From Candidatus Omnitrophota bacterium (GTDB lineage: Bacteria > Omnitrophota > Gorgyraeia > B26-G9), in NCBI GenBank assembly GCA_023136735.1, contig JAGLQQ010000056.1, positions 1 to 35,983 of the forward strand: 35,983 nucleotides of DNA, in the 5' to 3' direction. Under the pieces are notes generated by a model, which was given only the letters and a program-made list of their open reading frames with translations, was not told where the DNA came from and made no database searches. Within the stretch, counting starts at the first letter, position 1; the number at the start of each line of letters is the position of its first letter. A program made the position numbers and the translations under genes. Below, piece after piece: positions 7,087-30,735 of this stretch.

Positions 7087-10000
7087 ATGTCTGAAATAGT
7101 AGTAAGTTTGAAAAATATAAATAAACAATATTGGTTGAGCTTTGCTAAGCAATCTTTGATAGGCAATTTCCTTTCAATGTTTAGATTTGGTAAAGGCATG
7201 GCGGCTAAAAGACATGTCTGTGCTTTAGAGGGTATAGCACTAAATATAAAAAGAGGAGAGGCCGTTGGAATTATCGGGGAGAATGCCTCTGGTAAGACAA
7301 CGATACTGCGCATAATTAGCAGGATAACTGTACCGACTACGGGGGAATTGGAAGTAAACGGCAAGGTAGCGGGCCTTCTTGATTTAGGGGCTGGCTTTCA
7401 TTCTGAATTGACAGGAAGAGAGAATATTTATCTGGATGCAGCTTTGTATGGCATGAGCCGAAAAGAAATAGATGGGGCTTATGAAAAAATAGTTGAATTT
7501 TCCGGATTAGGGGATTTTATAAACGCGCAGGTTAAGACATATTCTCAAGGTATGCTTGTTCGACTAGGCTTTGCTATAGCCATACACGTTGATCCTGATA
7601 TATTCCTTATTGATGACAGCTTAGCTGTCGGAGATGAAGAATTTCAGCGTAAATGTCTTAAGAAGGTTTTTGAATTAAAAGAACAAGGGAAAACTATTAT
7701 TGTTGTATCCCATGACCTCGATTCCATAAGCAGGATTTGCGAAAGAGGGATTTTGCTTAAATCAGGCAGGATTGTTAAAGATGATTCTATTCATAAAGTA
7801 ATTATGCGTTATATAGAGGCAGTGGGAGATAAAAATTCTATTGCTTCAATTGACAAAGGAAGAATCAGTGTTATTTTTAACAGCGGTAAAATCATTCTTT
7901 TATGGGACGGCAAGCCAATAACAAAGAATTTTGGAGGATATGCTAGCTTACAGTTTCTTGATAAATGGATAATGTCTTGGCAGGGGAAATGGCAGGTTGT
8001 GGAAAATACAGATTATTCCTTGAAAGTTCAAGGACTATTCGATAAATATGGAGTAAAATTGGAACTGGCTTGTTTTCTTCAGGGCGAAAGGCTGATGAAT
8101 TTTAATCTTAAGCTGGAGGTTCCCACACAAACGAGTCTGAAAAAAGCTGGTTTTGGGTTTATGGTAAGTGAAGAATATAACCGCTATTTAAATGGACAAA
8201 ACATTGAACCCATACAAGCTATTGATAAGTCGGCAAAAGAATGGACGGATATTTACCGCACTGACGAATATAATGCGCCGATTATGCTTATCAGCCGGGA
8301 TAGTATGCCTGTATTGAATATAAGGTTTGCTAGCCATGAATGGGCTGGATTCAGTCTAATTCAAAATACGGCAGAAGAATTGAATGCGCGTATTATGCAG
8401 ACTCAAATAAGCCCGCCTCAAGCATTTGCTTTATCAGGTGAAGAGAGTTCTATTGTAGAAAGCAGCTGTAGGCTTGAGCTTATGAGTGAAGAGGATTTTA
8501 AGGGCCTTATACACAAAAGAATAGAAGAAAGCACGATAGCATCCGGCAGGCTTAAAGTGCAATTAAAAGACAACGGTATCCAAATTTTCTTTGATGAAAC
8601 TGAGCTGACAAAGAGTAATGGATTGAGTCTTGGTTTTTATCATAAAAGCAGGTTTTTTGATCTGTTTGCAGGTCTTTGGAGTTTGACTAAAAATGCTTCA
8701 GAAACACTTAGTATATGCTCCAGTTTTCAGGAAATGGGGTTAAAGGCTGAATGTTTGTTGCAATTGGCTGAGGATAGCCTAAGGTGGAATATAGATATTA
8801 AAAGTGAGAAATCAATTGAAGATCACAGGCTTATCACAGGTCTTTATTTAAGCGAAAAATACAGAAAATATTTTACCGGAGTTCACGACTATGAGTTTCC
8901 TGCTTCAGGAGAGCATGTTGAAAAGATTGATTTATTAGCAGGAGAAACGGACTTTATAGGTTTAATGGCAGGAAACGATGAATTGCCTTCACTGGTCTTC
9001 GAATCTCTGCAGCCAGGCATGTTAGAGCTGCAAAACTCAGGGATTGATTCCCCGGGACGCATTTTAATGCAGGAGGTAGTTGACAGGAGTACAAACGGAC
9101 GGATCGTATTCCTTGAGACCCCGGAGCAAAAGAGTGGATTTTTAATCGATAAAAAGAAAAAACATGCTAAGAGTACGGGTTTAAGCAATGATCAGCTTAG
9201 GCTTGAGTTTAATGAAAATAATATTAATATTTACAGTGGAGAAAGTAAAATAACTGGAGGAGAGGGTTTTAGCAGCGGGGTTTACTTTAATGGTCGGTGG
9301 TATGAATCAACTCAGCTTAAAAAACAGATACGCAAAGAAGGAGATACTCTTAAGGTCTTGATTGAAAGACGCTTGCCGCGTTTAAGTGAATTGTGGGAGA
9401 TATCATTGAAAGCTAAGAAAATTCAGTGGATAACGAAAATTCAATCTGAGGAAAAATTGAGCGATGTGCATTATAAGGCCGGCATTGTTTTAAATTCAGA
9501 GTATGGACAATGGGCTCATTCTTTTAGTGAAGGGCAGTTTGATGAACAAACAAGAAATAGCCGGGTTGTTGATTTAGATGACGTGAACAATGCCTTGCTT
9601 GGTGCCAGATCTGAGGATTGTTCCCTGCCTGCAGTATTCTTTAAGAGAATTAACAGTATTACTTCAGGGGTTATTATTCAGAAAGAAGAAGATAAGTGCT
9701 GTTTGCACTTCAAATTAAAAAATGCGGCAGTGATAAACGGTAAGGGCAGGGAAAAACTGTTTTCTGGGACGATAAGTTTGCAGGATGAAAGATGCTGGAG
9801 GAATGATCTGTCAAATCACCGCAAAGAGGAGTTTTCTCTGCAGACAAGTGATGGGCTTCAATTGTTTGCTGCGAATAAGCAGATAAAACTGCAAGCTCAA
9901 GGCATAGAGCTTACACAGGCAAAGGGATTGGCAGTCGCGCTGCTGTGTGAAGATGAAGATATAGATACTAATTTTGCATTATGGACATTGAAGAAGAACA

Positions 10001-11148
10001 GCCCAAGTAAACTAGAGGTCCAAATGGATTGGGCTAACTCAGTCTTGAGACAAAGGTGGCAATTTGAGCTTATTGATGATGCGATACAATGGACAGTATC
10101 GTTTGATGTTAAGAAGCCTATTTTGTATAAAGAATTATTAGTAAATGTGTTTCCTCAAAAGCAATTTAACAGATGGCAAACTATAGCTGATGCTGGTCAA
10201 ATCGATTGTGAAGGATCAGCTGGCAAAGCAGTAACTATTTTCGATAATAGAAGTGAAATTCTTAAGGTGTTTCAGGAGGGGATTTCTCGGGAAAGCCCAG
10301 GTTTGGCGCTTAACCTGCTTGTGGATATGAAGAAATGGTTTTTACATATCTATAATCACGAACGAGGTGATGGAATCGCTTGCGGGGCGCACTACCTGTC
10401 GGATCCTCAAGGAGAGTGCCTTGATCAGGGCACAATTGAAATTTTTAAGGCAAAGATATCATTAGTGAGTGATAGTGGCAGCGAGCAAATTGCAGCCCCT
10501 GGCAATCATGTGGATGCTTATGATCTAGAACTCGTTAAATTGAAGGTCAAAATTGAAAAAGCAAAAATGAGATTATTCTGGGCTGATAAGGAATTGACTA
10601 AAAAACTTGGAATGTTTACCTCTTTTTCCATTAATGGAAACCTGATAGATTCAACCCTGGCTAAATGGGATGTGCAGGCGGCCGTCGATAATAAAATAAA
10701 AGTCCGATTGAACTGGAGCAGTTATTTTGTCTCTCAATTATGGGAGATCAAGCTGATAAGTGAACATGAACTTTGCTGGGATGTTCGTACTGAAATTAAT
10801 CAGGCGGGTATAGATAGACATACAGCAGCTTTAATGCTCTCAGATAATTATGAGAGCTATAAGTCAGATGATAATCAGGGAGGCTGTTTTCCTGATAGGT
10901 TTAAGCTGGATGTTTGGATGAATATGTCAAAGACTAAAGATAGCATAGAAGTTAATTCAAAGCAAAGCAGCTTTCCGGCTTTAATTTTTGATGCCGCTTT
11001 TGAAAAACATGAATTTAGTAATATGTTAGAGAATTCTGATGCTCTTCATTCATCTAGAGTTTTAAGATGCGAAATGCAGAGCCCTGAGCTGGCGGGTAAG
11101 GCAGGATTAGCTTCTAGCATAAAAATAAATATATCAATACAGGAGTAG
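7087..11148 (+). CDS. wzt: Polysaccharide ABC exporter ATP-binding protein (Wzt/TagH family) with a ~1100-aa C-terminal extension of five tandem repeat modules
   Basis: NBD within aa 1-250: Walker A GENASGKTT, signature YSQGMLVRL, Walker B IFLIDDSLAVGD, H-loop VVSHD. Residues ~255-1353 are non-NBD and internally repetitive. Confidence 0.9.
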   Translation: MSEIVVSLKNINKQYWLSFAKQSLIGNFLSMFRFGKGMAAKRHVCALEGIALNIKRGEAVGIIGENASGKTTILRIISRITVPTTGELEVNGKVAGLLDLGAGFHSELTGRENIYLDAALYGMSRKEIDGAYEKIVEFSGLGDFINAQVKTYSQGMLVRLGFAIAIHVDPDIFLIDDSLAVGDEEFQRKCLKKVFELKEQGKTIIVVSHDLDSISRICERGILLKSGRIVKDDSIHKVIMRYIEAVGDKNSIASIDKGRISVIFNSGKIILLWDGKPITKNFGGYASLQFLDKWIMSWQGKWQVVENTDYSLKVQGLFDKYGVKLELACFLQGERLMNFNLKLEVPTQTSLKKAGFGFMVSEEYNRYLNGQNIEPIQAIDKSAKEWTDIYRTDEYNAPIMLISRDSMPVLNIRFASHEWAGFSLIQNTAEELNARIMQTQISPPQAFALSGEESSIVESSCRLELMSEEDFKGLIHKRIEESTIASGRLKVQLKDNGIQIFFDETELTKSNGLSLGFYHKSRFFDLFAGLWSLTKNASETLSICSSFQEMGLKAECLLQLAEDSLRWNIDIKSEKSIEDHRLITGLYLSEKYRKYFTGVHDYEFPASGEHVEKIDLLAGETDFIGLMAGNDELPSLVFESLQPGMLELQNSGIDSPGRILMQEVVDRSTNGRIVFLETPEQKSGFLIDKKKKHAKSTGLSNDQLRLEFNENNINIYSGESKITGGEGFSSGVYFNGRWYESTQLKKQIRKEGDTLKVLIERRLPRLSELWEISLKAKKIQWITKIQSEEKLSDVHYKAGIVLNSEYGQWAHSFSEGQFDEQTRNSRVVDLDDVNNALLGARSEDCSLPAVFFKRINSITSGVIIQKEEDKCCLHFKLKNAAVINGKGREKLFSGTISLQDERCWRNDLSNHRKEEFSLQTSDGLQLFAANKQIKLQAQGIELTQAKGLAVALLCEDEDIDTNFALWTLKKNSPSKLEVQMDWANSVLRQRWQFELIDDAIQWTVSFDVKKPILYKELLVNVFPQKQFNRWQTIADAGQIDCEGSAGKAVTIFDNRSEILKVFQEGISRESPGLALNLLVDMKKWFLHIYNHERGDGIACGAHYLSDPQGECLDQGTIEIFKAKISLVSDSGSEQIAAPGNHVDAYDLELVKLKVKIEKAKMRLFWADKELTKKLGMFTSFSINGNLIDSTLAKWDVQAAVDNKIKVRLNWSSYFVSQLWEIKLISEHELCWDVRTEINQAGIDRHTAALMLSDNYESYKSDDNQGGCFPDRFKLDVWMNMSKTKDSIEVNSKQSSFPALIFDAAFEKHEFSNMLENSDALHSSRVLRCEMQSPELAGKAGLASSIKINISIQE
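7849..11145 (+). other. Five tandem protein-level copies of an unrecognised ~215-230-aa module (approximate starts at aa 255, 485, 701, 921, 1146 of Wzt)
   Basis: Recurrent anchors: GRISVIFNSGKIILLWDGKPITK; GRLKVQLKDNGIQIFFDETELTKSNGL; LRLEFNENNINIYSGESKITGGEGF..GRWYEST; LQLFAANKQIKLQAQGIELTQAKGL; KLKVKIEKAKMRLFWADKELTKKLGM. Distal anchors: YKAGIVLNSEYGQW, LELQNSGIDSPGRILMQ, SLIQNTAEELNARIMQ, MLENSDALHSSRVLR. Boundaries are approximate. Confidence 0.7.
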
Positions 11149-11151
11149 GCT

Positions 11152-12141
11152 TTGATTGAGAATATCCCGGATAATCTTAAAAAAATTAAAATTTGCGATT
11201 TAAGTGCGGCTGCAAACTGTAATTTTAAATGTAAAATGTGTTTTTTTTGGCGCCCTCAAAAAAATGATGGGCAGACTATGAGTATCTCTGATTGGAAAAA
11301 GCTAATTTTGCAATTGGAGGAGTTTTTTGGTCCTGATCTGCTTATTAATATATCAGGTCCGGGAGAGGTGCTTCTTTTAAAGGGGATCGAAGAACTGCTC
11401 TTAGCTGCCGGTCGTAAATTCAGGGTTTCCATTAATTCTAACGGTTATGTAATCGATGATACTGCAGCAAAGATAATCACTGACAATATAGAGTCGATCA
11501 GCATATCGTTGGATGGTGTTTCAGCGCGAACGCATGATTATATACGCGGAATGCCAGGCTCTTATTCTGCAGCGGTTTTAGCTATCGAGAGACTGCGCAA
11601 AAAATCTAAAACGCTTATTATTACGGTAAGTACGGTTATTCTTGATTACAATTTAGATGAAGTTATTGATCTGGTTAACTGGATTGAAAGAAGTGAAGTT
11701 AATGGCATTATCTTTCAAGCTGTTTCTTTACCTAATAATATCGCTTATGATCCTATGTGGTTTAAAAATGAATTCAAATGTCTTTGGCCTCAAGATACAG
11801 AAAAAGTGAGGACCGTAATGGATAAGCTAATAGAATATAAAAGTCAGGGCAGTAAGATCGTTAATCCTGTTAAACAGCTTGAATGTTTCAAAGAGTACTT
11901 TTTAAATCCGCAACTGCATATTAAAAAATTAAGGTGTGAGGTTGATAATGTCTTAAAAATAGGCAGTTGCGGAGACATTAAGATCTGCGACTTTTCTCAG
12001 CCTATAGGAAATGTAAAAATAAGTCCGTTAAAGGAAATACTGGCTTCTGAGCTTGCTCAGGAGGAAAGACTAAAGGCTTATGAATGTAAAAGCCCCTGTC
12101 ATCTTTTGGTGAACTGTTTTCACGATAATGGAGGCGAATAA
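11152..12141 (+). CDS. Radical SAM enzyme with SPASM/twitch-like C-terminal Cys motifs (tandem paralog 1 of 5)
   Basis: TTG start 6 nt after AGGAG. CX3CX2C in AANCNFKCKMC. Other motifs: ISGPGE, NSNGY, SISLDG..HD..RG. Auxiliary motifs: C-X11-G-X4-C (CEVDNVLKIGSCGDIKIC) and CX3CX5C (CKSPCHLLVNC). Confidence 0.85.
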   Translation: MIENIPDNLKKIKICDLSAAANCNFKCKMCFFWRPQKNDGQTMSISDWKKLILQLEEFFGPDLLINISGPGEVLLLKGIEELLLAAGRKFRVSINSNGYVIDDTAAKIITDNIESISISLDGVSARTHDYIRGMPGSYSAAVLAIERLRKKSKTLIITVSTVILDYNLDEVIDLVNWIERSEVNGIIFQAVSLPNNIAYDPMWFKNEFKCLWPQDTEKVRTVMDKLIEYKSQGSKIVNPVKQLECFKEYFLNPQLHIKKLRCEVDNVLKIGSCGDIKICDFSQPIGNVKISPLKEILASELAQEERLKAYECKSPCHLLVNCFHDNGGE

Positions 12142-13158
12142 GTGGAATATACTGAAGAACAAAAAATAAATGCAGATAAAAGTATTTGCCCGGTGCCTAC
12201 TTTTTCCTGCTTTACACTCTGCGATGATTGTATTTTGCGTTGTCGAATGTGCGAAAAATGGAAGCCGGATATACATATTAAACCGGAGAGGAAGCAATTA
12301 GGCCAAGAAGACTGGAAAAGATGCGCAGTTTCATTGAAAAAAATTGCCCCGGAGAATTTTGTTATAAATTTCGGAGGAGGAGAAGTAACAACTGTACCTT
12401 GGCTTTTTGAAATTGTATCTTTTTGCCATGATTTAGGGTTTAAGACAAATATAGCCACTAACGGTTATTTGATGGATGAGGAGAAGGCAAAAAAGATGTC
12501 GGAATCAGGCCTTGATTATGTAAATATTTCTTTAGACAGCATTGATGAGACTTTGCATGATGAACTGCGCGGGGTAAAAGGCACATACGCTAAAGTGATA
12601 AATGCGATAGATCTTATTAATAAATATGCACCTAATACGCAGATAAGCCTTTGCTCGATTATGATGGCTGATACAATAGACGGGATGGTAGAGTTGGTAA
12701 ATTGGGCACAGGATAATGAGAAAGTAGCCATGATATACCTGATGGCCATTATGCAGCCGAATAATACTATGACCGGACTACAATGGTACAAAAATGAGTT
12801 CAGCCATTTATGGCCAAAAGATTATTGTAAAGTTAAAAATACAATTGATGAACTTATTGAGCTAAAGAAAAAGGGTTTCAAGATATCAAATCCCGTAGAA
12901 CACCTTCAGGCTTACAAAACTTATTTTTCTGACCCTCAGACGTATGTTAAAAAGTCAAATTGCAACATAGACCATGCTTTACACATTAGTTCCGTAGGGG
13001 ATGTTTTTATGTGTTACAGTTTTGATAAAATAGGCGATGCAAGAGAAGACTGTGTTGAAAATCTCTGGAAATCTGATAAAGCCGAGGATATCCGTAAACA
13101 GATTAGAGCTTGTAAAGAAAACTGTCATTTTCTTTTGAATTGTAACTTCAAGGATTGA
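12142..13158 (+). CDS. Radical SAM enzyme with SPASM/twitch-like motifs (tandem paralog 2 of 5)
   Basis: GTG start 7 nt after GGAGG, abutting the upstream stop. Motifs: CILRCRMC, NFGGGE, ATNGY, ISLDS..HD..RG, CNIDHALHISSVGDVFMC, CKENCHFLLNC. Confidence 0.85.
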   Translation: MEYTEEQKINADKSICPVPTFSCFTLCDDCILRCRMCEKWKPDIHIKPERKQLGQEDWKRCAVSLKKIAPENFVINFGGGEVTTVPWLFEIVSFCHDLGFKTNIATNGYLMDEEKAKKMSESGLDYVNISLDSIDETLHDELRGVKGTYAKVINAIDLINKYAPNTQISLCSIMMADTIDGMVELVNWAQDNEKVAMIYLMAIMQPNNTMTGLQWYKNEFSHLWPKDYCKVKNTIDELIELKKKGFKISNPVEHLQAYKTYFSDPQTYVKKSNCNIDHALHISSVGDVFMCYSFDKIGDAREDCVENLWKSDKAEDIRKQIRACKENCHFLLNCNFKD

Positions 13159-13162
13159 ATTT

Positions 13163-14200
13163 ATGCGGTATGAATTAGAAAAAAACATTGAGTCGGTGCC
13201 AACGTATTGTTGTATCGCGATATTAGAAAGCTGTTTTATGCATTGTAAAATGTGCTATAAATGGCAGGAAGATGTGCTTATTCGCAAGCCGGATGAGCCG
13301 ACATTAGAGGAGTGGAAGCAGGCGATATCAGATCTTGCGCAATTGTGTAAGGAGCAAAAGCCGCAAATTAATTTTGCCGGAGGAGAGCCGCTTGCTAGAG
13401 AAGAAATTTTTGAGCTTATAGCTTATGCGCAGAACCTGGGGTTTCCGGCGCTCTTAGCAAGTAATGCTTATTTAGTTGATGAGGTAAAAGCTCAAAAAAT
13501 TGCCCAAGCACAGCTTAAGGGTATTTCCATTTCTTTAGATGGCGTAACACCTCAAACTCATGATTTGATGAGAGGAGTTTTCGGTGCACATGAAAAGGTG
13601 CTGCAGTCCATAGATTTGATTAGGCGTTATTCTCCGGGCACTAAAATCACTTTGAATTGCTGTATTTGCGCTTTGAATATACACGAACTTCCGGATCTTG
13701 TTCAGTGGGCGAATAATGATGGTCGCATTGATGGCATATTTTTCCAGGCAGTGACACAACCTTTTAGTACTCCTGAGGAAGAATATTGGTACAAAAATGA
13801 TAAATATTCCGATCTTTGGCCTCTTGATACATTAAAAACGAATGAGATACTAGAGAAAATGTATTTACTAAAGTCAAAAGGTGATTTTAAGGCTCCTTTT
13901 CAGATTTTAAATCCAGCAAGTCAATTTAGAGCCTTTAAGCACTATTTCAGTGATCCTGAGAAGTTTATCAAAAAGGGACGCTGTCATCTTGATAATAGTG
14001 CAATTAATATAACTCCTGCAGGAGAAGTCCATCTTTGTTTTTCTATGCCGGCTATAGGCAATATAAAACATCAAAGTATCCAGACAATGTGGCATTCAAA
14101 ACATGCGGAAGAAGTTAGAAGTCAGATAAAGCAATGCAAAAAAAACTGCCAGGCATTGGTTAATTGTAATTTCGATGATAAACAAGACTATATTGACTAA
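13163..14200 (+). CDS. Radical SAM enzyme with SPASM/twitch-like motifs (tandem paralog 3 of 5)
   Basis: Motifs: CFMHCKMC, NFAGGEP, ASNAY, ISLDG..HD..RG, CHLDNSAINITPAGEVHLC, CKKNCQALVNC. Confidence 0.85.
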   Translation: MRYELEKNIESVPTYCCIAILESCFMHCKMCYKWQEDVLIRKPDEPTLEEWKQAISDLAQLCKEQKPQINFAGGEPLAREEIFELIAYAQNLGFPALLASNAYLVDEVKAQKIAQAQLKGISISLDGVTPQTHDLMRGVFGAHEKVLQSIDLIRRYSPGTKITLNCCICALNIHELPDLVQWANNDGRIDGIFFQAVTQPFSTPEEEYWYKNDKYSDLWPLDTLKTNEILEKMYLLKSKGDFKAPFQILNPASQFRAFKHYFSDPEKFIKKGRCHLDNSAINITPAGEVHLCFSMPAIGNIKHQSIQTMWHSKHAEEVRSQIKQCKKNCQALVNCNFDDKQDYID

Positions 14201-14217
14201 AAAAGGAAAACTAGCTA

Positions 14218-15228
14218 ATGATAAAACCTAGGTTTGGATGTTTAGGTATTACGGATAATTGTATGTTACGCTGTAAAATGTGTCAAAAATGGAAGCCGGA
14301 TATTTTTATAAGCGAGAAAGATGTCAATAAGTTCCCTACAGTCGCACAATATCGGAAGTTTCTTTATGAACTTCGGGAGCTGGTTGACGATGATTTTGTC
14401 GTTAATTTCGGCGGCGGCGAAGCGTTATTGTACCCGGATATATTTGAAGTTATTAAAATTGCCTCAGAATGCGGATTACGCACAAATATCAACTCGAATG
14501 GGTTTTTAATCGATGAAAAGGTAGCCCGCAAATTAGGCGAGGCGGGGATGCAGAATATAAAAATATCTTTAGATAGTGTAGATCCAAAAATCCATGATTA
14601 TATGCGGGGAGTAGAAGGTGTTCACGCGCGGGTGATTCAAGCTATTAATAATTTGCATGAATTTGCTCCCGCAATGAATGTGTCATTAATAAGCGTGATC
14701 TATGAGCAAACTTACAGAGGTTTTATTCCTCTAATAGAATGGATAAACAATAATGAAAAGATCGAGCATGTTTTGATAATGGTTGCCATGCAGCCGAATA
14801 ATACTGAACCTGAAGAACATTGGTGGAGCTCTAAACACGGGTTTCTTTGGCCAAAGGACAAAGCGGCTGTTTCTGTTCTTATGGATAAGCTGATAGACTT
14901 AAAAGCTCAGGGGTATAAAATCAATAATGAAATAGTTCAATTAAAAGCGGCTAAGGAATACTTAAAGCAGCCGGATAAGTTTGTTAAAAGTACTATTTGT
15001 AATATGTATAAGGCGGTGCATGTAAGTGCTATAGGCCAGATATTCATTTGCTTTAACTACGGATTTCTCGGAGATATTCGTAAAGGCGATGATATAAGAA
15101 AAATATGGCAATCTCAGGAAGCAGAAGCTGTCCGGAGGGAAATAAAGAATTGCAAAAAAAACTGTCATTTTTTAATAAATTGTTATTTTGAAGAAGATGA
15201 ATTAACTGAGGAGTTGCAAAACCAATGA
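14218..15228 (+). CDS. Radical SAM enzyme with SPASM/twitch-like motifs (tandem paralog 4 of 5)
   Basis: Motifs: CMLRCKMC, NFGGGE, NSNGF, ISLDS..HD..RG, CNMYKAVHVSAIGQIFIC, CKKNCHFLINC. It shares a 19-nt identical run with paralog 2 (AAAAATGGAAGCCGGATAT at 14285-14303 and 12254-12272). Confidence 0.85.
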   Translation: MIKPRFGCLGITDNCMLRCKMCQKWKPDIFISEKDVNKFPTVAQYRKFLYELRELVDDDFVVNFGGGEALLYPDIFEVIKIASECGLRTNINSNGFLIDEKVARKLGEAGMQNIKISLDSVDPKIHDYMRGVEGVHARVIQAINNLHEFAPAMNVSLISVIYEQTYRGFIPLIEWINNNEKIEHVLIMVAMQPNNTEPEEHWWSSKHGFLWPKDKAAVSVLMDKLIDLKAQGYKINNEIVQLKAAKEYLKQPDKFVKSTICNMYKAVHVSAIGQIFICFNYGFLGDIRKGDDIRKIWQSQEAEAVRREIKNCKKNCHFLINCYFEEDELTEELQNQ

Positions 15229-16250: not shown

Positions 16251-16271
16251 GATTTTATAGGAGATCATATT

Positions 16272-19200: not shown

Positions 19201-19811
19201 CGGGGAATAAACCAAGATTGATAATGACTCATGTAATTCATAATCAAAACGCGCATGAGCTTGTTGAAATGGCTAGGAATGATATTGAAATTGGCGCTGA
19301 TGTCATGCGTTTTTATCTGATCCGTTTGGATGAAAATATTGAGTTTTTGAAATTAAAGGCTGAAGATCTTGAAAAAATAAAGACTTCAATGGTACAGATA
19401 AAGCAACTTGCAAAAGGTAAGGATATACAACTCTTAGACACCACTGATTTTCAGCTTGAGAACTTTGAACAAGAAAGCGGCTCTTGGTCGGGAAACGTGT
19501 TTCTTGAAAAGGGTTGTACTCTTGGCTGGAATTTTTGTCTTATTCCGGCATCAGGGGAGGTGAGTTTTTGTTGTCATTTGAGAACAGTCGGGTATTTGGC
19601 AGAAAAAGGGTTTAAGGCTATTTGGAACTCCGACGATTATAAGCGTTTTCGCTACCAGGCTAAATTTTTGAGTAAAAACGCAAAGGAAAAATTCCTGAAC
19701 GGTACATCTCTTTTTGATGAATATTGCCAGCATTGTGATACACATCAGGTGATAAGAGATGTTTGGGATCAATTTAAATTATATAATTTAGAGGAATTTT
19801 TTAGCGGCTGA
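16272..19811 (+). CDS. 1179-aa fusion: three copies of the Wzt-type repeat module, a linker, and a C-terminal radical SAM domain with a twitch/SPASM-like motif
   Basis: AGGAG lies 8 nt upstream. The rSAM CX3CX2C is CNANCIHC at 18780-18803. Other motifs: FQGDGEP, FTNG, and C-X12-G-X4-C (CTLGWNFCLIPASGEVSFC). The N-terminal ~665 aa are repeat modules. Confidence 0.85.
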   Translation: MFKKLFSKITKCDFASGVAKLRVKNNRLELVYANTNISSDICIHTAMLIEGQWLSSSDGLWSSEKKKDTLHITIDWKEIPIRHLWQIRRIENGFNWIVYMDIKSEVKIEKMICGIMLKSDYEKWISAVEEGSFPAFSKSWGNVFLQDTEGKLLGVRNQNDFPGVIFENLQHGELLLQNSPDDSQSRALRIEQDFHSEVLKVNRYKPFNLNLYLLENMGETDDFIDKKNKQLLEQRQIIEGKLKLELEHSTIHLYWDELKLTANQGLHSALMVGGEWFDSSYAQWKVQRINAQCIYIDIDWRPLPIKQSWQLTINNGTSFDWKVKTQLKEKREDLIGKMSLGLVLNPDYKEWLGVYESGRFPVDFGSWQEMIEDMPEGAIGLKNAAKLPGIIFKNTDGYKPKLLVQNGDKDAKARFLQSVSADEFEFHQQIKIVEDKKDIEEFIKGKMDEEILRSGISLGSMKLVCSKGKVRLFWKDKEITTDIGLHSAVCSGGRWYDSGKMKWDIKKVTDKKLKICVDFNPFPAIQTWELDFSSSNVFSWKISMKLLKPVEISEHKAGIILNGAYKEWFNSFEDGKFPEKFSYWHDIIRNRDAETFGAYPAGDLPGVMLSLDEKHLSLIQNTDENISGRVFQGQVVETEETKLYEKQEFDCFAAVLKLVEDRSQIAEYKKEAQPLSYESETIYLYADNAFLHNRIAGVDDFEEKIKKIKALINQNKKFKITIGVSRYNFFKLEQVLKFVLSLKGKNIDLRSSKLNILPLRRLRRNSIEYFEALKKIAMQEGGVNFALIDRDFFKMITSIYAQADSGNERQLLRLLGVLCEHAFIGPAIIVIDPYHRCNANCIHCWVHTPGVSHPKEYYDMKLDVNKFKAIADDLGDLMVDLIIFQGDGEPLMHDRFFDMVKYARDKGIQVSFFTNGILLNKGHADTSLENGISEIFCSLPAGTAKTFAKINSKQSEKTFDDILKNLKYLCDKKKRKTGNKPRLIMTHVIHNQNAHELVEMARNDIEIGADVMRFYLIRLDENIEFLKLKAEDLEKIKTSMVQIKQLAKGKDIQLLDTTDFQLENFEQESGSWSGNVFLEKGCTLGWNFCLIPASGEVSFCCHLRTVGYLAEKGFKAIWNSDDYKRFRYQAKFLSKNAKEKFLNGTSLFDEYCQHCDTHQVIRDVWDQFKLYNLEEFFSG
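16314..18266 (+). other. Three protein-level copies of the repeat module (approximately aa 15-215, 238-435, 455-665)
   Basis: Anchors: KLRVKNNRLELVY..GQWLSSSDGLW; KLKLELEHSTIHLYWDELKLTANQGLHSA..GEWFDSSYAQWKV; MKLVCSKGKVRLFWKDKEITTDIGLHSA..GRWYDSGKMKWDI. Distal anchors: HKAGIILNGAYKEWFNSFEDGKFP, FPGVIFENLQHGELLLQNSPDDSQSRALRIEQ, LPGIIFKN..LLVQNGDKDAKARFLQ, LPGVMLS..LIQNTDENISGRVFQ. Confidence 0.7.
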
Positions 19812-20806
19812 TGAAATTTAGAATCGCATGGTCCGTAAATAGGGGAAATAAAAAGTACAAAGCAACTTTGTGTGGAGGTTTTCTGCTTATTATTTGCGGT
19901 GCCTTGATCTCGGTGATATTGGCTGAGCTGTTTGTGAGATATTTTGTTGATTTGCCGCTTGAAAAGGAGTATCTGCGGTTTGGTTGTAACGATTATGAGA
20001 AGTTTGATCCTGAGAATTATGATAGAGATCTATTTTGGAAACCGACTGAAGAATTTAAAAATGTTGAATACTCGATTAAAAAGCCAGAAAATACGTTCAG
20101 AATTATCTGTATTGGTGATTCTATAACTCAAGGTGACGCGCAGGAAAAAGGTCTTTTGCCCAGAGAGCAAACTTATGTTTATAAATTAGAGCGGCTGTTT
20201 TCAAAGGAATTTAAGGCAAAGAACATTGAAGTTATAAACGCGGGCAGCGGGGGATATAGTTCTTTGCAGGGGCTAAGGTATCTTAAAAGAACATTGTGGA
20301 AATATGAACCTGATTTGGTAGTAAGCTGGTTTGGTATAAACGATTACTATTACTCTTTGTTTTATCCTGACAAAGAGCAGAGATTGCCGGAGGATAAGGC
20401 TCTGAGATCGGGAACAATCCTGTCAAAAAGCAGACTGTTGCTATTTGTTAAAAATTTTACTTTGATAAGAAGATCATTGAAAAAGCCTGTAGTTCGAGTG
20501 CCGCCTGATGATTTCTATGAAAATTGCGAAGAAATGCTTATTTTTTCAAAGGAAAATAGGTTTAAGATAGTTTTTGTCGCTCCTTTTCAGTATGGACAGT
20601 ATAATAATATAGAATATTTTGAGGGCTATATGGAAAAGCTGGCTGATCTTGAAAAAAAGTATGGGTGCCAAATAATATATCTAAAACCATATCTCTCAGG
20701 AATAGACCTGAAAAGTATTTATGTGGATACGTGCCACTTTAATGAAGCCGGGAACATGATCCTGGGCTATGCTCTATCTGAATCTCTTAGAGGATATATA
20801 AAATGA
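19811..20806 (+). CDS. Membrane-anchored SGNH/GDSL-family hydrolase (esterase / acyl-transfer type), paralog 1
   Basis: TGATG overlap with the upstream gene. N-terminal TM segment (LCGGFLLIICGALISVILAELF). SGNH blocks: ICIGDSITQGD (I), NAGSGGYSS (II), WFGINDYY (III), DTCHFNEAGN (V, DxxH). Confidence 0.8.
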   Translation: MKFRIAWSVNRGNKKYKATLCGGFLLIICGALISVILAELFVRYFVDLPLEKEYLRFGCNDYEKFDPENYDRDLFWKPTEEFKNVEYSIKKPENTFRIICIGDSITQGDAQEKGLLPREQTYVYKLERLFSKEFKAKNIEVINAGSGGYSSLQGLRYLKRTLWKYEPDLVVSWFGINDYYYSLFYPDKEQRLPEDKALRSGTILSKSRLLLFVKNFTLIRRSLKKPVVRVPPDDFYENCEEMLIFSKENRFKIVFVAPFQYGQYNNIEYFEGYMEKLADLEKKYGCQIIYLKPYLSGIDLKSIYVDTCHFNEAGNMILGYALSESLRGYIK

Positions 20807-21043
20807 AAAAGTTTAAATAAGAGATGTGAATGAAGTTCATGTAAAATGAAAAGCACTAATTTCATCTTCAGGAAAAATATAATACTCGTGGTTTCTTTTT
20901 AGAAAAGCAATGAAAAAATGATCGATGCTGAACCTTTTAAGTGAGGTTTTAAAATAGAGCAAAGGAAAGAAATGGTTGAAAGTAAGTTTGATAGCTGAAA
21001 TGGGAGCATTGCCCAAAAATAGGCGAATAAATAGGCAGGGATC

Positions 21044-22033
21044 ATGAAGTTGAAATTAATTTTGAAAAAGGGGCGGAAGAACATAAAAATCAGTTTGCCG
21101 GCAGTTGTTTTGATGCTTTGCTTTGGGATTGTGGGGGGATTTTTAGTGGCTGAATTCATGGTCAGGAAGACAATCGTTTTTCCTCTAGATAGGGAGTATG
21201 GCAAATTTCTTCATCTATCCGGGTTCTCGATCCCCAAGGCCAATGTTGATGAAAAATTATTTTGGAAATCTTCGCCAGAGTTTAGAGGTGTCCCGCATTC
21301 AATTGAGAAAAAAAAAAGGGTTTTCAGAGTAGTCTGCCTGGGGGATTCTGTGACGCAGAGCCATGGTGCTGACGGGTATCCTCTGCCGCTTGAGAATACG
21401 TATGTTTTTTACTTGGAAAAAATTCTGGAGAGTAGTTTTGAAACTATGGATTTTGAAGCGATTAATGCTGGAGTAGGGGGATACAGCTCTCTGCAGGGGG
21501 TAAGATATCTACAAAATAAATTGATCAAATATGGTCCTGATTTGGTTGTAGTCTGGTTCGGCGTAAATGATGACTCTGATGCATTGTTTTTCCCCGATAA
21601 GGATCAGAGGATTGGGAAAAAAATTATTTCAGGAAAAAATAAACTTTTAGAAAATAGTAAATTTTATCTTTTTTTAAAAAACGTGATATTCAAGCCGAGA
21701 TTAAGAAGAGTGTCTAAGAAAAATTATTACGAAAATTGCAGGGAAATGCTGCTGCTTGGGGCAGATAATAATTGCGAAGCTGTTTTTGTGGTCCCGGTTG
21801 AGATTGAAAACGGCAGGATAGAATACTATGCGGAATATAAAGAAGCTTTGGAAAGATTGAAAATTGATTATAACTGCGCGATTATTGATATAAGGGATAG
21901 ATTGAATGCGGATAGCCGTATAAGCGAATTTTTTATTGATAATTGCCATGCAACAGCTGAGGGAAATAGGCTGATTGCGGAAGCGATAGTTGAAGAACTT
22001 AGACAAAAGGGAATAATTAAAGAAAAGGACTGA
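21044..22033 (+). CDS. Membrane-anchored SGNH/GDSL-family hydrolase, paralog 2
   Basis: N-terminal TM segment (LPAVVLMLCFGIVGGFLVAEF). SGNH blocks: VCLGDSVTQSHG, NAGVGGYSS, WFGVNDDS, DNCHATAEGN. The SD is weak, so the start is slightly uncertain. Confidence 0.75.
   Translation: MKLKLILKKGRKNIKISLPAVVLMLCFGIVGGFLVAEFMVRKTIVFPLDREYGKFLHLSGFSIPKANVDEKLFWKSSPEFRGVPHSIEKKKRVFRVVCLGDSVTQSHGADGYPLPLENTYVFYLEKILESSFETMDFEAINAGVGGYSSLQGVRYLQNKLIKYGPDLVVVWFGVNDDSDALFFPDKDQRIGKKIISGKNKLLENSKFYLFLKNVIFKPRLRRVSKKNYYENCREMLLLGADNNCEAVFVVPVEIENGRIEYYAEYKEALERLKIDYNCAIIDIRDRLNADSRISEFFIDNCHATAEGNRLIAEAIVEELRQKGIIKEKD
21308..21317 (+). repeat. A10 homopolymer inside the SGNH paralog 2 coding sequence
   Basis: gagAAAAAAAAAAggg encodes E-K-K-K-R, counted directly. 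The tract is less unusual in an AT-rich genome. Confidence 0.9.
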
Positions 22034-22141
22034 TCGTCCATTGCCATACGACAAAAAAATGGAATCTGCTTATAGTAACTCATATTGTTAACCAATTTAA
22101 TGAGAGACTGGAAAAAATAGCATTATAAAGGTGAAAGCTAA

Positions 22142-25100
22142 ATGAAAATATTACTGGTAAATTTACCATGGAAAAGTGGTAGTCGTTGGGGGGTACGTGC
22201 AGGTTCACGTTGGCCGCATATTAAAGATCAGACGGAGGAGAATTATTTGTCGTTTCCTTTTTACCTCGCATATGCTGTTGCCTTGCTGAAAAAACATGGA
22301 TTTGACGCGCATATTATAGATGCTATTGCCCAGAAGACATCTTATGATTCGTTTTATAAAGAAATTATATCTTTAAAACCTGATTTGCTTGTAGTGGAAA
22401 CTTCTACAGTTACGTTAAATCATGATATCAGATTTCTCTCTCGTTTTAATGGTGATTTTCAAATTGCTCTATGCGGTCCTGATGTTCATATCGCAAGAGT
22501 GGATTTCTTAAATAAAAATAAGAACATTGATTATGTTCTATACGGTGAGTATGAAGCAACTCTGCTTGAGCTCACTCAGAAACTAAAAAATAATCAAGCA
22601 CTTGATGCTCTTAACGGTTTACTGCATAGACAAGGAGGTAAAGCTATTAAAAACCCTCCTAGGGAGCTTATCGAAGACCTTGATTGGCTGCCATGGCCTG
22701 AGCGAAAACTGCTTCTAATAAAAAAATACAATGACGCCCCGGGAGATATACCCTTGCCCTGTGCTTCCATGTGGGCAAGCAGGGGATGTCCTTATAAATG
22801 CTCCTTTTGCTTGTGGCCTCAGGTTATGTATGGGGGTAATTCCTACAGGGTCAGAAGTGTTAAGAATGTTGTTGATGAGATGGAGTATTTAGTTAATGAT
22901 CTTGGATTTAAGTCTGTTTATTTTGATGATGATACTTGGAATATCGGCAGAAAGAGAATGCTTGATTTCTGTCAAGAGTTGAAACACAGAGATCTGCAAA
23001 TACCCTGGGCGATTATGGCCAGAGCTGAATTAATGGATGAGGCTCTTCTTGAAGTAATGCGTGATGCAGGGCTTTTTGCCGTTAAATATGGCATTGAGTC
23101 ATCTTCACAAAAGATATTAGATGATACTGGAAAGGGACTTAATCTCAAAAAAGCTGAAGAGATAATAAAGTATACAAAATATTTGGGAATAAGAACACAT
23201 CTTACATTTACCTTCGGCCTAATTGGAGAGACGCGGGAAACAATAAAGAATACTATTGATTATGCGCTTTTGCTTAATCCTACATCAGTTCAGTTTTCAC
23301 TGGCAACACCTTTTCCTGGGACTAAGTTCTATAAACAAATGGATGAAAAGGGATATCTCTTGACTAAGGATCTTGAAAAATTTGACGGCAATCACAGCAG
23401 TGTTATCCGCACGGAAAAACTGACAGCAAAACAGCTTGAAAATGCAAAAAAACAGGCTTATGCAAGATGGCATGAACATTATCAGATAAAACGCAAAAAA
23501 CTTGCTTTTGAACAAAAACCCTTGAGAGCAAAGTTGAAAAGCTCGTTGGTTGAAAAGGGAGTTTTGAAAACAGTGATGAAAGTGCTCAGGTTTTTTATAA
23601 AGAATATATTTTTTATACCAGGACGTATTAGAAATTTTTTAAGCAAAAATCTCTGGATTATAGAGGAAGTAATCTTAAATGGTAGTATTAAGATAAAGTT
23701 TGGTGAAGGGCAGGTGCGTCTTTTTTGGAAGGATAGAGAAATAAGTAAAGGCGTTGGGTTGACTACATCTTTCTATTATGGAGAACGGTGGTATGATTCA
23801 TCTCAGGCAAATTGGAAACTGGAAAAAGAATCTGCTAATGCAATAACAGTAAAATTAAATTGGGATGAGGTCCCTGTAAGGCAATACTGGAAGATTTCCG
23901 TTAATTCAGATCATGACATCCATTGGACTACAGAAATGGATGTAAAAAGAGCTGTGCAGCTTTTGGAATATAAGTCTGGAATTATGCTGCAGCCTGAGTT
24001 TGATATGTGGAAAGATGACCTAGGAGTTGGTAAATTCCCTCAATTGCAGGATTGGGAGGAAATCGAACTTTATAATTCGAAAAGCAAGGTATTAACTGCT
24101 CTGCAATCAGGCTCAGAGCAGGGCAATAGGTTTCCGGTGGTTGAGCTTTCTCTTTTGGGTCAGATGGGAAAAAATACATATCCGCAGATACAAAATACTG
24201 ATTTAAAGACTAAAGCAAGAATTATACAGATGCGTTGTTTAAAAATAGAACAATTCGCTCCAGGTAAGTATGGTTATTTCGATTTAAAATTGAAATTAAA
24301 AGAGAGTCCTGCTCAGCAAACATTGTCTGCTTATAAAAGTAAAGTGCCTTTGAAATTTTTTAAGAATCAATTGAAAAACCAAGGGCTGCTAGAAGTTTTA
24401 AAAAAAATGCGTCCTAAAAAAATTGCCGGGCACTATTTGGATATCCTGGGAGTGCTTGACGGCAGCCATGCTTACAAGGGGCCTTTTTGTGTCCAAATTG
24501 ATTTGACAAATGATTGTAATAATGATTGCATCGGATGCTGGTGTAATTCACCATTATTAAAAGACAAGAAAATTAGTGATAATATTAAAGGGCAGACTCT
24601 ACCGCTGGAAGTGGTAAAAAAAACAATCGATCAGCTTCATGCTATGGGAACGAAAGAAATATACTTTGCTGGCGGTGGAGAACCTTTTATGCACCCTAAT
24701 ATTATGGATATATTAGAGCATGTTAAGTCAAAAGAGCTGCGAGTCTATATAAATACTAATTTTACGCTTGTTAATGAAGATATTGTTAAAAGATTGGTTG
24801 ATCTTAAGGTAGACAACCTAGTTATCAGTGTTTGGGCTGGTGAGCCGGATACATATGTAAAAACTCATCCTAATAAGTCTCCTGAGATGTTTTTTCAAAT
24901 AAAAGGAATGTTAAAGCTTCTTAATTCAATGAAAAAGGACTTACCGCATACGAATATATATAATGTGATTTCAAATGTGAATTATGATGAGCTAGAACTT
25001 ATGGTAGATTTTGCTATAGATACTGGTTCAAATTCATTAGAATTTACAGTTATAGATACAATACCAAAGGCTACTGACTCTTTGATACTAACTGATGTTC

Positions 25101-26326
25101 AAAGGAAGCAGGTGGTTAAAAGTGCAAAAAATATAGATGAGCGTTTAAGAACAAAGGATAAGAATAAGATAAAAGTTCTTGGTTTTGAGCAATTTGTTCG
25201 CAGGGTTAGTAATACGGATGCAAAAAGAGCTAAATATGATAAGGATATTCTCTCTGACATGCCTTGTTATATCGGTTGGCTGTTTGCAAGGATACTTGCT
25301 GATGGCAATGTGAACTTTTGTCTTAAGGCGCATAGGATTCCTGTGGGTAATGTCTATGCGAATAGCTTTCTTGACATATGGAATAATAGGAAACAGCAGG
25401 AATTTAGAAAACGGGCCTTGTGCGCATCAAAAGATGATGTATTCTTCTCTTTTATAGGTAATGATCCTAATGCTTTGGTAGGATGTTATAAAAGTTGTGA
25501 TGACCTGGCTCGCAATGTACATATGCATAAAAAAATCCAGTCTTTAAGTGCTATCGAAATATATTTTCTCAGAGTACTTTTATTTTGTATGAAAATTAAA
25601 AGATGTTTTAAAGATAAAAAAATAAAGCAGACTTTGCGTTCACATGTGCAGTGGAAAACAAAACAGGCGCAAGGTAAAATAGCTCAGGGTAAGCTGCATG
25701 TCGAAATGCATGAGGGGGGTGTGAAACTTTTTTGGAATAAACAGGAATTAACACAGGGGGTTGGATTGAATTCATCTGTTTGTATTTTTGGCCTTTGGTA
25801 TGATTCTTCAAAAGCAATATGGGAGGTGACTAAGCATAGCGATGATGAACTGATTATTAAAAACAACTGGCGCAATATTCCCATAGCTCAGGAATGGCGC
25901 ATTAAGTTTGATGGCCAAAATTTATTATTGTGGCAGATTAGTATGAGTGTTGACTCAAAAATTGAAATAGAGGAGAGTAAAGCGAGTATTATGCTTTCTC
26001 TTGAATATGCCAAATGGAATACAAATGAAGAACGTGGTAAATTCTCGGCAGTTATGTCCTGGAAAGAGGTTAATATAAAAAATTTGCAAGTTAAACAGGT
26101 TGGTGTGCAATGCGTAAAGAATAACGGACACATAATGCCTGATATAAGTTTTGATTTTACTTGCACACCGGGAGGAGTAAAGCCGCAGGTCCAAAATTCC
26201 GATAAGATCATAAATGCCAGGGTGATATCCGCACTGTGTACTGAACAAAATGGTGGTAAGGTTTTCTTGCCTGGCAGCTATGAATGTTTTTCTACGAAAA
26301 TCAATATAGGGGATAATGATGATTAA
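22142..26326 (+). CDS. 1394-aa dual radical SAM protein: B12-binding-type rSAM, repeat module, second rSAM (twitch/SPASM-like), repeat module
   Basis: AGGTGA SD. The N-terminus MKILLVNLPW.. has the layout of a B12-binding domain. rSAM-1 is RGCPYKCSFC (22787-22810) and rSAM-2 is TNDCNNDCIGCW (24515-24538), followed by AGGGEPFMH and C-X12-G-X4-C (CYIGWLFARILADGNVNFC). rSAM-2 is a paralog of the C-terminal domain of the 1179-aa protein. Confidence 0.85.
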   Translation: MKILLVNLPWKSGSRWGVRAGSRWPHIKDQTEENYLSFPFYLAYAVALLKKHGFDAHIIDAIAQKTSYDSFYKEIISLKPDLLVVETSTVTLNHDIRFLSRFNGDFQIALCGPDVHIARVDFLNKNKNIDYVLYGEYEATLLELTQKLKNNQALDALNGLLHRQGGKAIKNPPRELIEDLDWLPWPERKLLLIKKYNDAPGDIPLPCASMWASRGCPYKCSFCLWPQVMYGGNSYRVRSVKNVVDEMEYLVNDLGFKSVYFDDDTWNIGRKRMLDFCQELKHRDLQIPWAIMARAELMDEALLEVMRDAGLFAVKYGIESSSQKILDDTGKGLNLKKAEEIIKYTKYLGIRTHLTFTFGLIGETRETIKNTIDYALLLNPTSVQFSLATPFPGTKFYKQMDEKGYLLTKDLEKFDGNHSSVIRTEKLTAKQLENAKKQAYARWHEHYQIKRKKLAFEQKPLRAKLKSSLVEKGVLKTVMKVLRFFIKNIFFIPGRIRNFLSKNLWIIEEVILNGSIKIKFGEGQVRLFWKDREISKGVGLTTSFYYGERWYDSSQANWKLEKESANAITVKLNWDEVPVRQYWKISVNSDHDIHWTTEMDVKRAVQLLEYKSGIMLQPEFDMWKDDLGVGKFPQLQDWEEIELYNSKSKVLTALQSGSEQGNRFPVVELSLLGQMGKNTYPQIQNTDLKTKARIIQMRCLKIEQFAPGKYGYFDLKLKLKESPAQQTLSAYKSKVPLKFFKNQLKNQGLLEVLKKMRPKKIAGHYLDILGVLDGSHAYKGPFCVQIDLTNDCNNDCIGCWCNSPLLKDKKISDNIKGQTLPLEVVKKTIDQLHAMGTKEIYFAGGGEPFMHPNIMDILEHVKSKELRVYINTNFTLVNEDIVKRLVDLKVDNLVISVWAGEPDTYVKTHPNKSPEMFFQIKGMLKLLNSMKKDLPHTNIYNVISNVNYDELELMVDFAIDTGSNSLEFTVIDTIPKATDSLILTDVQRKQVVKSAKNIDERLRTKDKNKIKVLGFEQFVRRVSNTDAKRAKYDKDILSDMPCYIGWLFARILADGNVNFCLKAHRIPVGNVYANSFLDIWNNRKQQEFRKRALCASKDDVFFSFIGNDPNALVGCYKSCDDLARNVHMHKKIQSLSAIEIYFLRVLLFCMKIKRCFKDKKIKQTLRSHVQWKTKQAQGKIAQGKLHVEMHEGGVKLFWNKQELTQGVGLNSSVCIFGLWYDSSKAIWEVTKHSDDELIIKNNWRNIPIAQEWRIKFDGQNLLLWQISMSVDSKIEIEESKASIMLSLEYAKWNTNEERGKFSAVMSWKEVNIKNLQVKQVGVQCVKNNGHIMPDISFDFTCTPGGVKPQVQNSDKIINARVISALCTEQNGGKVFLPGSYECFSTKINIGDNDD
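23675..24286 (+). other. Repeat module copy (approximately aa 512-715 of the 1394-aa protein)
   Basis: Anchors: IKIKFGEGQVRLFWKDREISKGVGLTTS..ERWYDSSQANWKL..VPVRQYWKI..YKSGIMLQPEFDMWKDDLGVGKFP..PQIQNTDLKTKARIIQ. Confidence 0.7.
25682..26311 (+). other. Repeat module copy (approximately aa 1181-1390 of the 1394-aa protein)
   Basis: Anchors: KLHVEMHEGGVKLFWNKQELTQGVGLNSS..GLWYDSSKAIWEV..IPIAQEWRI..SKASIMLSLEYAKWNTNEERGKFS..PQVQNSDKIINARVIS. Confidence 0.7.
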
Positions 26327-29723: not shown

Positions 29724-29792
29724 AAAAACAATAGAAAGTATTAAGGTTCACCTGATTTTATAGTTTTAAATAGCATGAGGGGTATAAATAAT

Positions 29793-30725: not shown

Positions 30726-30735
30726 AATTTTTTAA

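Follow-up and report, generated by a model that had tools for sequence, protein, structure and literature searches.

In a 35,983-nucleotide contig of a Candidatus Omnitrophota bacterium (JAGLQQ010000056.1, assembly GCA_023136735.1; hereafter the window, meaning this whole stretch), we have found ten copies of a repeat module of about 205-215 aa, shared by the ATPase of a polysaccharide exporter and two large radical SAM (rSAM) enzymes. Five copies are in the ATPase Wzt, three in an rSAM/SPASM protein (rSAM1) and two in rSAM2, where a B12-binding rSAM (B12-rSAM) domain and an rSAM/SPASM domain are joined. Judging from sequence searches and structural models, the module is a sequence family new to the catalogues, with a known fold and in a known functional slot, and its spread over an exporter and radical enzymes is unusual. 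We suggest, with about even confidence, that it is an uncatalogued, non-catalytic supersandwich domain for putative glycan recognition and targeting in an ABC-transporter-dependent, polyprenol-linked pathway typical of Candidatus Omnitrophota. This reading is favoured because the module takes the slot after the nucleotide-binding domain (NBD) of Wzt, has a carbohydrate-associated predicted fold, is found only with partners from glycan pathways, and carries an aromatic/polar signature.

Module copies in the window

The Wzt gene (7087-11148, 1353 aa; all features of the window described here are on the + strand) starts with the NBD (aa 1-250, 7087-7836), which matches ABC_tran (PF00005, E 7.5e-16). 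In NCBIfam, the export ATPases TagH and Wzt/RfbE are closest, with every score under the curated (equivalog) cut-offs, and the gene directly upstream (6176-6955) encodes its partner, a Wzm-like ABC-2 permease (PF01061 ABC2_membrane, E 3e-15). These matches agree with a preliminary description, made from the sequence alone, in which the exporter ATPase had been named Wzt. The first module starts at aa 251, directly after the NBD, in the position of the carbohydrate-binding domain (CBD) of Wzt proteins. The array comprises Wzt_1 (aa 251-453, 7837-8445), of the NBD-proximal 'first' subtype; Wzt_2 (aa 478-678, 8518-9120), whose closest paralogue in the window is copy 1 of rSAM1 (29% identity, E 1e-19); Wzt_3 (aa 694-905, 9166-9801); Wzt_4 (aa 917-1128, 9835-10470), the most diverged copy; and Wzt_5 (aa 1144-1353, 10516-11145), of the C-terminal 'last' subtype. 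The copies of rSAM1 (16272-19811, 1179 aa) are r1_1 (aa 8-215, 16293-16916), r1_2 (aa 232-434, 16965-17573) and r1_3 (aa 450-660, 17619-18251), and those of rSAM2 (22142-26326, 1394 aa) are r2_1 (aa 505-721, 23654-24304) and r2_2 (aa 1176-1394, 25667-26323). The linkers between modules have about 15-25 residues and look flexible.

An ordered set of anchors recurring five, three and two times in these proteins had been described before, and iterative and single-sequence hidden Markov model (HMM) searches, together with shuffles, confirm it. In a cross-validation that removes circularity, the HMM built from the five Wzt copies recovers all five enzyme copies at 1e-24 to 5e-33, while the top score of a shuffled Wzt tail (n=300) was 9.5 bits, so the internal repeats are highly significant. 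Even Wzt_4 is detected, with an independent E-value of 3e-4 for the single sequence and 5e-15 with the enzyme-only HMM. No eleventh copy was found when the ten-copy HMM was run against the six-frame translation of the window (next best independent E-value 2.5). The Wzt copies are more diverged than the enzyme copies, as had been noticed, with pairwise identities of 19-25% or not significant among Wzt modules against 25-31% among enzyme modules.

Tandem Repeats Finder detected no DNA-level repeats in 7087-26326, the repetition being at the protein level only, which indicates that the duplications are old and not an assembly artefact. The 1179-aa rSAM1 protein recurs on seven contigs, and the five listed come from five different sample accessions. 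The absence of DNA tandem repeats, the identities of 19-31% and the recovery from several samples thus rule out a recent DNA duplication or an assembly artefact.

Beyond its modules, rSAM1 has a conserved region of about 140 aa without family (aa 661-800, 18252-18671), followed by the rSAM/SPASM catalytic region (18747-19694; PF04055, E 3.7e-17; PF13186, E 1.3e-9). In rSAM2, the B12-rSAM domain (aa 1-460, 22142-23521; PF02310, PF04055, HpnJ-like) precedes r2_1, and the second rSAM/SPASM domain (24494-25423; PF04055 at aa 788-958, PF13186 at aa 1042-1094) lies between the two modules. Transmembrane segments dividing modules from catalytic domains were considered and rejected, there being no strong hydrophobic segment and just two borderline stretches in rSAM2 (aa 474-492, 23561-23617, and aa 1132-1150, 25535-25591; Kyte-Doolittle 1.4-1.6), 12 and 25 residues before the modules. 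These are unlikely to be true transmembrane segments, since the Fe-S domain would end up outside the cell, and they may be amphipathic membrane-association helices.

Sequence searches and predicted fold

Neither Pfam-A nor NCBIfam has a match to the module, in the full proteins or as isolated modules, and no carbohydrate-binding module (CBM) family is among the Pfam matches of the proteins or modules. The CBD family of known Wzt proteins, Wzt_C (PF14524), gave no match at E up to 1 with whole proteins or at E up to 10 with the ten isolated modules. Against PDB sequences, profiles of 10 and of 34 diverse modules retrieved chance matches only, which excludes sequence relatedness to the solved Wzt CBDs. 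In literature searches on Omnitrophota and radical SAM, on Wzt and radical SAM, on the Wzt CBD, and on radical SAM with undecaprenyl or polysaccharide, none of the papers retrieved describes the module or this locus type. The earlier impression that the module belongs to no recognised family therefore stands; it maps to no Pfam or NCBIfam family and to no PDB sequence, including any of non-glycan function.

We modelled two modules with AlphaFold2. For r1_3, with the ten paralogues as alignment, the predicted local distance difference test (pLDDT) was 92.4 and the predicted template modelling (pTM) score 0.89; for Wzt_5, with orthologous 'last' modules added, the values were 94.0 and 0.90. Both models are all-beta, with about 19-20 strands. 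They were compared with the PDB by Foldseek, and the top 50 matches were inspected for each. The best match of r1_3 is the beta-supersandwich domain of a Flavonifractor galactosaminidase (GH-type; 9ayu_A, E 1.8e-7, TM 0.71), and an aldose 1-epimerase (3nre_A) was found at E 1.1e-6 and TM 0.64. The two models share matches to aldose 1-epimerases (3nre, 1nsx, others), to supersandwich (N-terminal/accessory) domains of glycoside hydrolase (GH) enzymes of families GH2/15/31/36/38/63/65/94, and to heparinase III, OpgG and cyclic beta-1,2-glucan synthase. According to the models, the fold is a galactose-mutarotase-like beta-supersandwich, and dozens more members of this superfamily are among the matches. 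Many glycoside hydrolases, phosphorylases and lyases have the fold as an accessory domain, which in glycoside hydrolases is usually non-catalytic.

The preliminary description had implied a likeness to the C-terminal beta-sandwich of Wzt from E. coli O9a, and this part did not hold. Like the Wzt_C domains of E. coli O9a, Raoultella terrigena and Aquifex aeolicus, the module is fused to the C-terminus of a Wzt NBD, is all-beta in prediction and would take part in selecting the polymer for export, as is presumed for Wzt_C. It differs in having no sequence match to Wzt_C or any PDB chain, and in its size (~210 aa) and predicted supersandwich of about 19 strands, with no Wzt CBD entry among the top 50 fold matches of either model. 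The CBD of known Wzt proteins, also C-terminal to the NBD, is a jelly-roll whose dimer forms through swapped C-terminal strands (PMC9445017). A further difference is that the module can be repeated in tandem, with at least 7 copies in the longest arrays, and is also found on radical SAM, GT-C and GT1 enzymes.

With galactose mutarotase-like supersandwich domains, including those of polysaccharide lyases, OpgG and YidC P1, the module shares the predicted fold and an association with carbohydrate processing. However, the identity is only 7-13%, with no profile-level sequence relationship, and the module is shorter than the epimerases, does not occur on a glycoside hydrolase, and has cytoplasmic partners (ABC ATPase, radical SAM) in place of secreted carbohydrate-active enzymes.

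Family members, partners and arrays

The module family is rare: when 1.84 billion cluster representatives were searched exhaustively with its HMM, 636 matched at an E-value of 1e-3 or better and 260 at 1e-30 or better. In the best 150 homologues, whose domains were mapped with the window HMMs, a Wzt NBD precedes 2-7 modules in 88 proteins, and modules (M) are fused to rSAM/SPASM or B12-rSAM in 14. One protein is GT1-M-rSAM, and others consist of modules only, many of these being cut short by a contig end. Of the proteins whose N-terminus had no assignment, eight proved in Pfam to be PMT_2 (GT-C) glycosyltransferases with 2-4 C-terminal modules (P0016, P0083, P0092, P0100, P0107, P0125, P0128 and P0146); further PMT_2-module proteins were observed in two related loci (L009, 4044-6314; L015, 6890-10591). 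A crude hydropathy/positive-inside count gives the GT-C-module fusions 7-12 helices with no clear orientation. The recognisable partners in the best 150 are all glycan-pathway proteins, and the named members of the family are all labelled Candidatus Omnitrophota/Omnitrophica or 'PVC group'.

Among these 150 are two direct NBD-modules-rSAM fusions, P0001 (RKY36779.1, 1856 aa) and P0118 (a three-member cluster, 1212-1219 aa), in which Wzt ATPase, modules and rSAM/SPASM form one polypeptide. Modules 4 and 5 of P0001 are similar to enzyme-type modules, which suggests a fusion of adjacent Wzt and M-M-rSAM genes. The ~140-aa region of rSAM1 is present in every M(n)-rSAM/SPASM fusion of the rSAM1 type among the homologues, and it was also seen in an rSAM-linker-rSAM protein (L009, 17152-19920).

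The number of modules on Wzt varies from 1 to at least 7 across proteins, and the arrays have a defined order. Best-hit analysis of 496 modules revealed position-specific orthology regardless of array length: 'first' modules have as best match the 'first' module of other Wzt proteins in 89 of 100 cases, and the best match of a 'last' module is another 'last' module in 99 of 103. The five anchor motifs described for the window reappear in the consensus of 383 modules from other metagenomes, with a family signature (HMM numbering) of T30, G34, W45, S48, W53, Q76, W78, Y115, W118, G125, F127, P157, N176 and R184. Ten of these positions are aromatic or polar (W45, S48, W53, Q76, W78, Y115, W118, F127, N176, R184), and none of the positions conserved at >=60% in the 383 modules is His, Asp or Glu. 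The signature is best retained in 'last' Wzt modules (mostly 0.9-0.98) and rSAM-borne modules, and least in middle Wzt modules. In the window, the five enzyme copies keep nearly the whole signature, and Wzt_1 to Wzt_4 each lack several positions.

Related loci

The GTDB species genomes were scanned with five closer 'last' modules, so that the list of taxa is biased towards relatives of this subtype. The 15 loci found belong to Omnitrophota (9), metagenome-assembled genomes (MAGs) labelled as Planctomycetes-type (2), Elusimicrobiota, candidate division B38, Aminicenantes and an unclassified MAG (1 each). A module-bearing Wzt, complete or cut by the contig end, is present in 14 of the 15, adjoined by Wzm wherever an upstream flank exists; the fifteenth (L015), a glycosyltransferase locus, encodes a PMT_2-M3 protein. 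B12-rSAM and/or rSAM/SPASM genes follow Wzt in 13 of the 14 loci, L020 holding the Wzt gene only, and an M-B12-rSAM gene is often directly downstream of Wzt (L006-L011, L014). Single-module NBD-M proteins of about 470 aa were found in other phyla (L017-L019). Altogether, in the 15 genome loci and two further contigs, the contexts in which homologues occur are Wzm/Wzt or glycosyltransferase loci only, mostly with radical SAM genes.

The locus L021, on a 708-kb contig of a PVC-group MAG, has synteny with the window over the stretch that runs from an unknown 731-aa protein up to the carbamoyltransferase, but lacks an 11-kb block (11152-22033) in which the window has the five small rSAM genes, rSAM1 and the two GDSL genes. 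Since this block is absent from a syntenic locus, it appears from the gene order to be a cassette of tailoring genes that varies while the rest of the glycan locus is conserved, like serotype variation. Wzt has five modules in both loci, and the enzyme-borne modules number two in L021 against five in the window.

In related loci, four rSAM/SPASM domains are found in one uninterrupted open reading frame (ORF) of about 1410-1430 aa in L006 (12980-17266), L009 (12892-17148) and L010 (3790-8028), the window having five separate paralogous genes (11152-16250). In L006 one ORF (17239-20622) contains three B12-rSAM domains.

Proposed glycan recognition and other explanations

ABC-transporter-dependent glycan export is understood from few Proteobacteria and Aquifex, in which a single jelly-roll CBD of Wzt reads the terminal cap. 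In our proposal, the module would replace this canonical C-terminal domain on Wzt, in an array of 1 to at least 7 copies with an NBD-proximal 'first', variable 'middle' and strongly conserved C-terminal 'last' type. From the Wzt slot the domain would have been copied onto tailoring enzymes, the radical SAM enzymes here and GT-C and GT1 enzymes in other genomes, whose modules have the conserved Trp/Tyr/Phe/Gln/Asn/Arg signature in common with the 'last' Wzt module. At the cytoplasmic face, one nascent polymer may thus hold both the exporter and the enzymes that tailor it, in the manner of CBM-targeted glycoside hydrolases. We infer that the ligand is the glycan, bound through the conserved signature, with middle modules mainly as spacers or auxiliary sites.

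The resemblance to the CBMs of carbohydrate-active enzymes is that of a non-catalytic module reused on varied catalytic partners, sometimes in multiple copies, and putatively holding them on a polymer. Mycobacterial GT-C arabinosyltransferases have C-terminal CBM-like domains, and fusions of GT-C to C-terminal modules occur in the present family as well. Unlike CBMs, the module matches no Pfam CBM family, and its partners are an exporter and anaerobic radical enzymes.

Several observations weigh against glycan recognition. The fold matches of both modules (E 1e-6 to 2e-7, probability 1.0, query TM 0.6-0.7) are at superfamily level, with 7-13% identity, and they also include the P1 domain of YidC and minor capsid proteins of PBCV-1, which have no shown role in sugar binding. 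The conserved Trp and Tyr may belong to the core and not to a binding surface, the position-specific conservation in the arrays would equally suit a fixed protein scaffold, and a protein complex would account just as well for the direct Wzt-rSAM fusions. A polymer- or terminus-recognition domain, as the preliminary description had put it, is thus supported in part, circumstantially, by the predicted carbohydrate-associated fold and by the CBD position on Wzt, and no longer by any likeness to the O9a sandwich.

The modules could instead be protein-protein docking domains, those of Wzt binding those of the enzymes (homo- or heterotypically) in a metabolon for export and tailoring that makes no contact with the glycan through them. 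We regard this as doubtful, although much of the evidence is compatible with it: the exporter and several enzymes of the same locus share the domain, P0001 and P0118 show proximity by covalent Wzt-M-rSAM fusion, modules keep their identity by array position, dimers are formed by the known Wzt CBD, too, through strand exchange (PMC9445017), and in the window the five Wzt modules equal the three plus two of the enzymes. However, this equality fails elsewhere, with 5 against 2 in L021, and 4 against 1 or 2 and 3 against 1 in loci with complete flanks (L009, L014, L006), and in five loci the modules are on Wzt alone despite the presence of radical SAM genes (L012, L016-L019). From L021 and these Wzt-only loci, a partner module is not required. 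In characterised GT-C relatives such as ArnT the C-terminal domain is periplasmic. The modules of GT-C proteins follow a multi-pass membrane domain and, if periplasmic as in these relatives, would have no contact with the cytoplasmic Wzt modules. The homotypic scaffold that had been offered as an alternative is therefore weakened by the Wzt-only loci and by the drop of enzyme modules from five to two in L021 with Wzt unchanged, while the direct fusions are still compatible with it.

Rather unlikely, in our view, is that the Wzt array works as a cytoplasmic assembly line, in which each position would present the lipid-linked glycan to, or dock, a cognate module-bearing rSAM, GT-C or GT1 enzyme. 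Up to ten radical SAM domains would then tailor the polymer processively, with export only when it is complete. The logic would resemble that of docking domains in polyketide synthases and nonribosomal peptide synthetases, here with a cell-surface glycan that is modified by anaerobic radical chemistry.

We find it less probable still that the array serves chiefly as a molecular ruler or spacer, the terminal module alone reading the polymer end and the number of middle modules setting the distance to the membrane and hence the exported chain length. The WbdD coiled coil of E. coli O9a is a protein ruler, which gives a precedent in this pathway; the copy number of 1 to at least 7 with constant 'first' and 'last' types and the most eroded signature in middle modules would agree with it. 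The role of WbdD is mentioned in PMC3482155. On the other hand, the linkers look flexible, and a pure spacer role does not explain why the three tandem modules of rSAM1 all retain the full signature. A ruler or spacer role of the middle modules could be compatible with either glycan recognition or a scaffold.

A catalytic role of the module on the glycan (epimerase/mutarotase-like or glycoside-cleaving) is very improbable, as the presence of true aldose 1-epimerases (3nre, 1nsx, others) among the best fold matches is set against a length of ~210 aa versus the full ~290-345-aa epimerase domain (TM normalised to target about 0.4-0.5), the absence of the conserved catalytic His/Glu and of any His, Glu or Asp at the >=60% level, the up to 5-7 tandem copies per protein, and the normally non-catalytic, accessory role of the fold in glycoside hydrolases.

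As to what glycan recognition would mean, an unrelated domain family appears to fill the recognition slot of Wzt in a large uncultured phylum, in long arrays and in common between the exporter and the polymer-tailoring enzymes. If the module binds glycan, a CBM-like family would be added to those known, and evolution would have found a second way to couple tailoring with export. The family also marks Wzm/Wzt loci packed with radical SAM and B12-rSAM domains (ten in the window, four fused in one polypeptide elsewhere), and such loci imply uncharacterised polysaccharide chemistry, for example C-methylation or other radical transformations. Its HMM is a simple handle for these loci in metagenomes, and the isolated 210-aa domain is tractable for expression and binding work.

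Gene content of the window

The window has 22 ORFs of >=150 aa, all on the + strand, and ten rSAM domains. Its gene content is, by sequence similarity, that of an ABC-transporter-dependent, polyprenol-linked glycan locus. No window rSAM enzyme reaches any NCBIfam family cut-off, the nearest family to the N-terminal half of rSAM2 being HpnJ, with 267 bits where 578 are required, and Rfam and tRNA scans of the window gave no matches. Between Wzt and rSAM1 there are five consecutive rSAM genes of ~335 aa (11152-16250; SPASM detected in 4 of 5), and rSAM1 is followed by two GDSL proteins (19811-22033). Downstream of rSAM2 are an additional B12-rSAM gene (26316-27959) and genes for GT1, GT2, a carbamoyltransferase, an unknown 256-aa protein, PMT_2 (GT-C) and a last rSAM/SPASM protein (28566-35940). 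The PMT_2 protein (33180-34886) is without module, and homologous GT-C proteins elsewhere have 1-4 C-terminal modules.

Upstream of Wzm, a GT4 polyprenyl-phosphate HexNAc-1-P transferase-like protein (3874-4887) precedes an FAD amine-oxidase-like protein (4884-6179), whose gene is kept between GT4 and Wzm also in L006, L008, L014, L021 and L022. The best NCBIfam match of the latter is PRK07208 'hypothetical protein', with a weak match to UDP-galactopyranose mutase (E 1e-7). The window begins with an unknown protein of 728 aa (12-2198) and a pilin-like N_methyl protein (2135-2890); a protein of ~730 aa, with no Pfam or NCBIfam match, together with a pilin-like N_methyl/T2SSJ protein, lies upstream of the glycan locus both here (12-2890) and in L021 (3726-6733). 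At the other end, the PMT_2 ORF and the last rSAM/SPASM ORF (34795-35940) overlap by 92 bases as mechanically called, and the real start of the latter gene is probably further inside its ORF.

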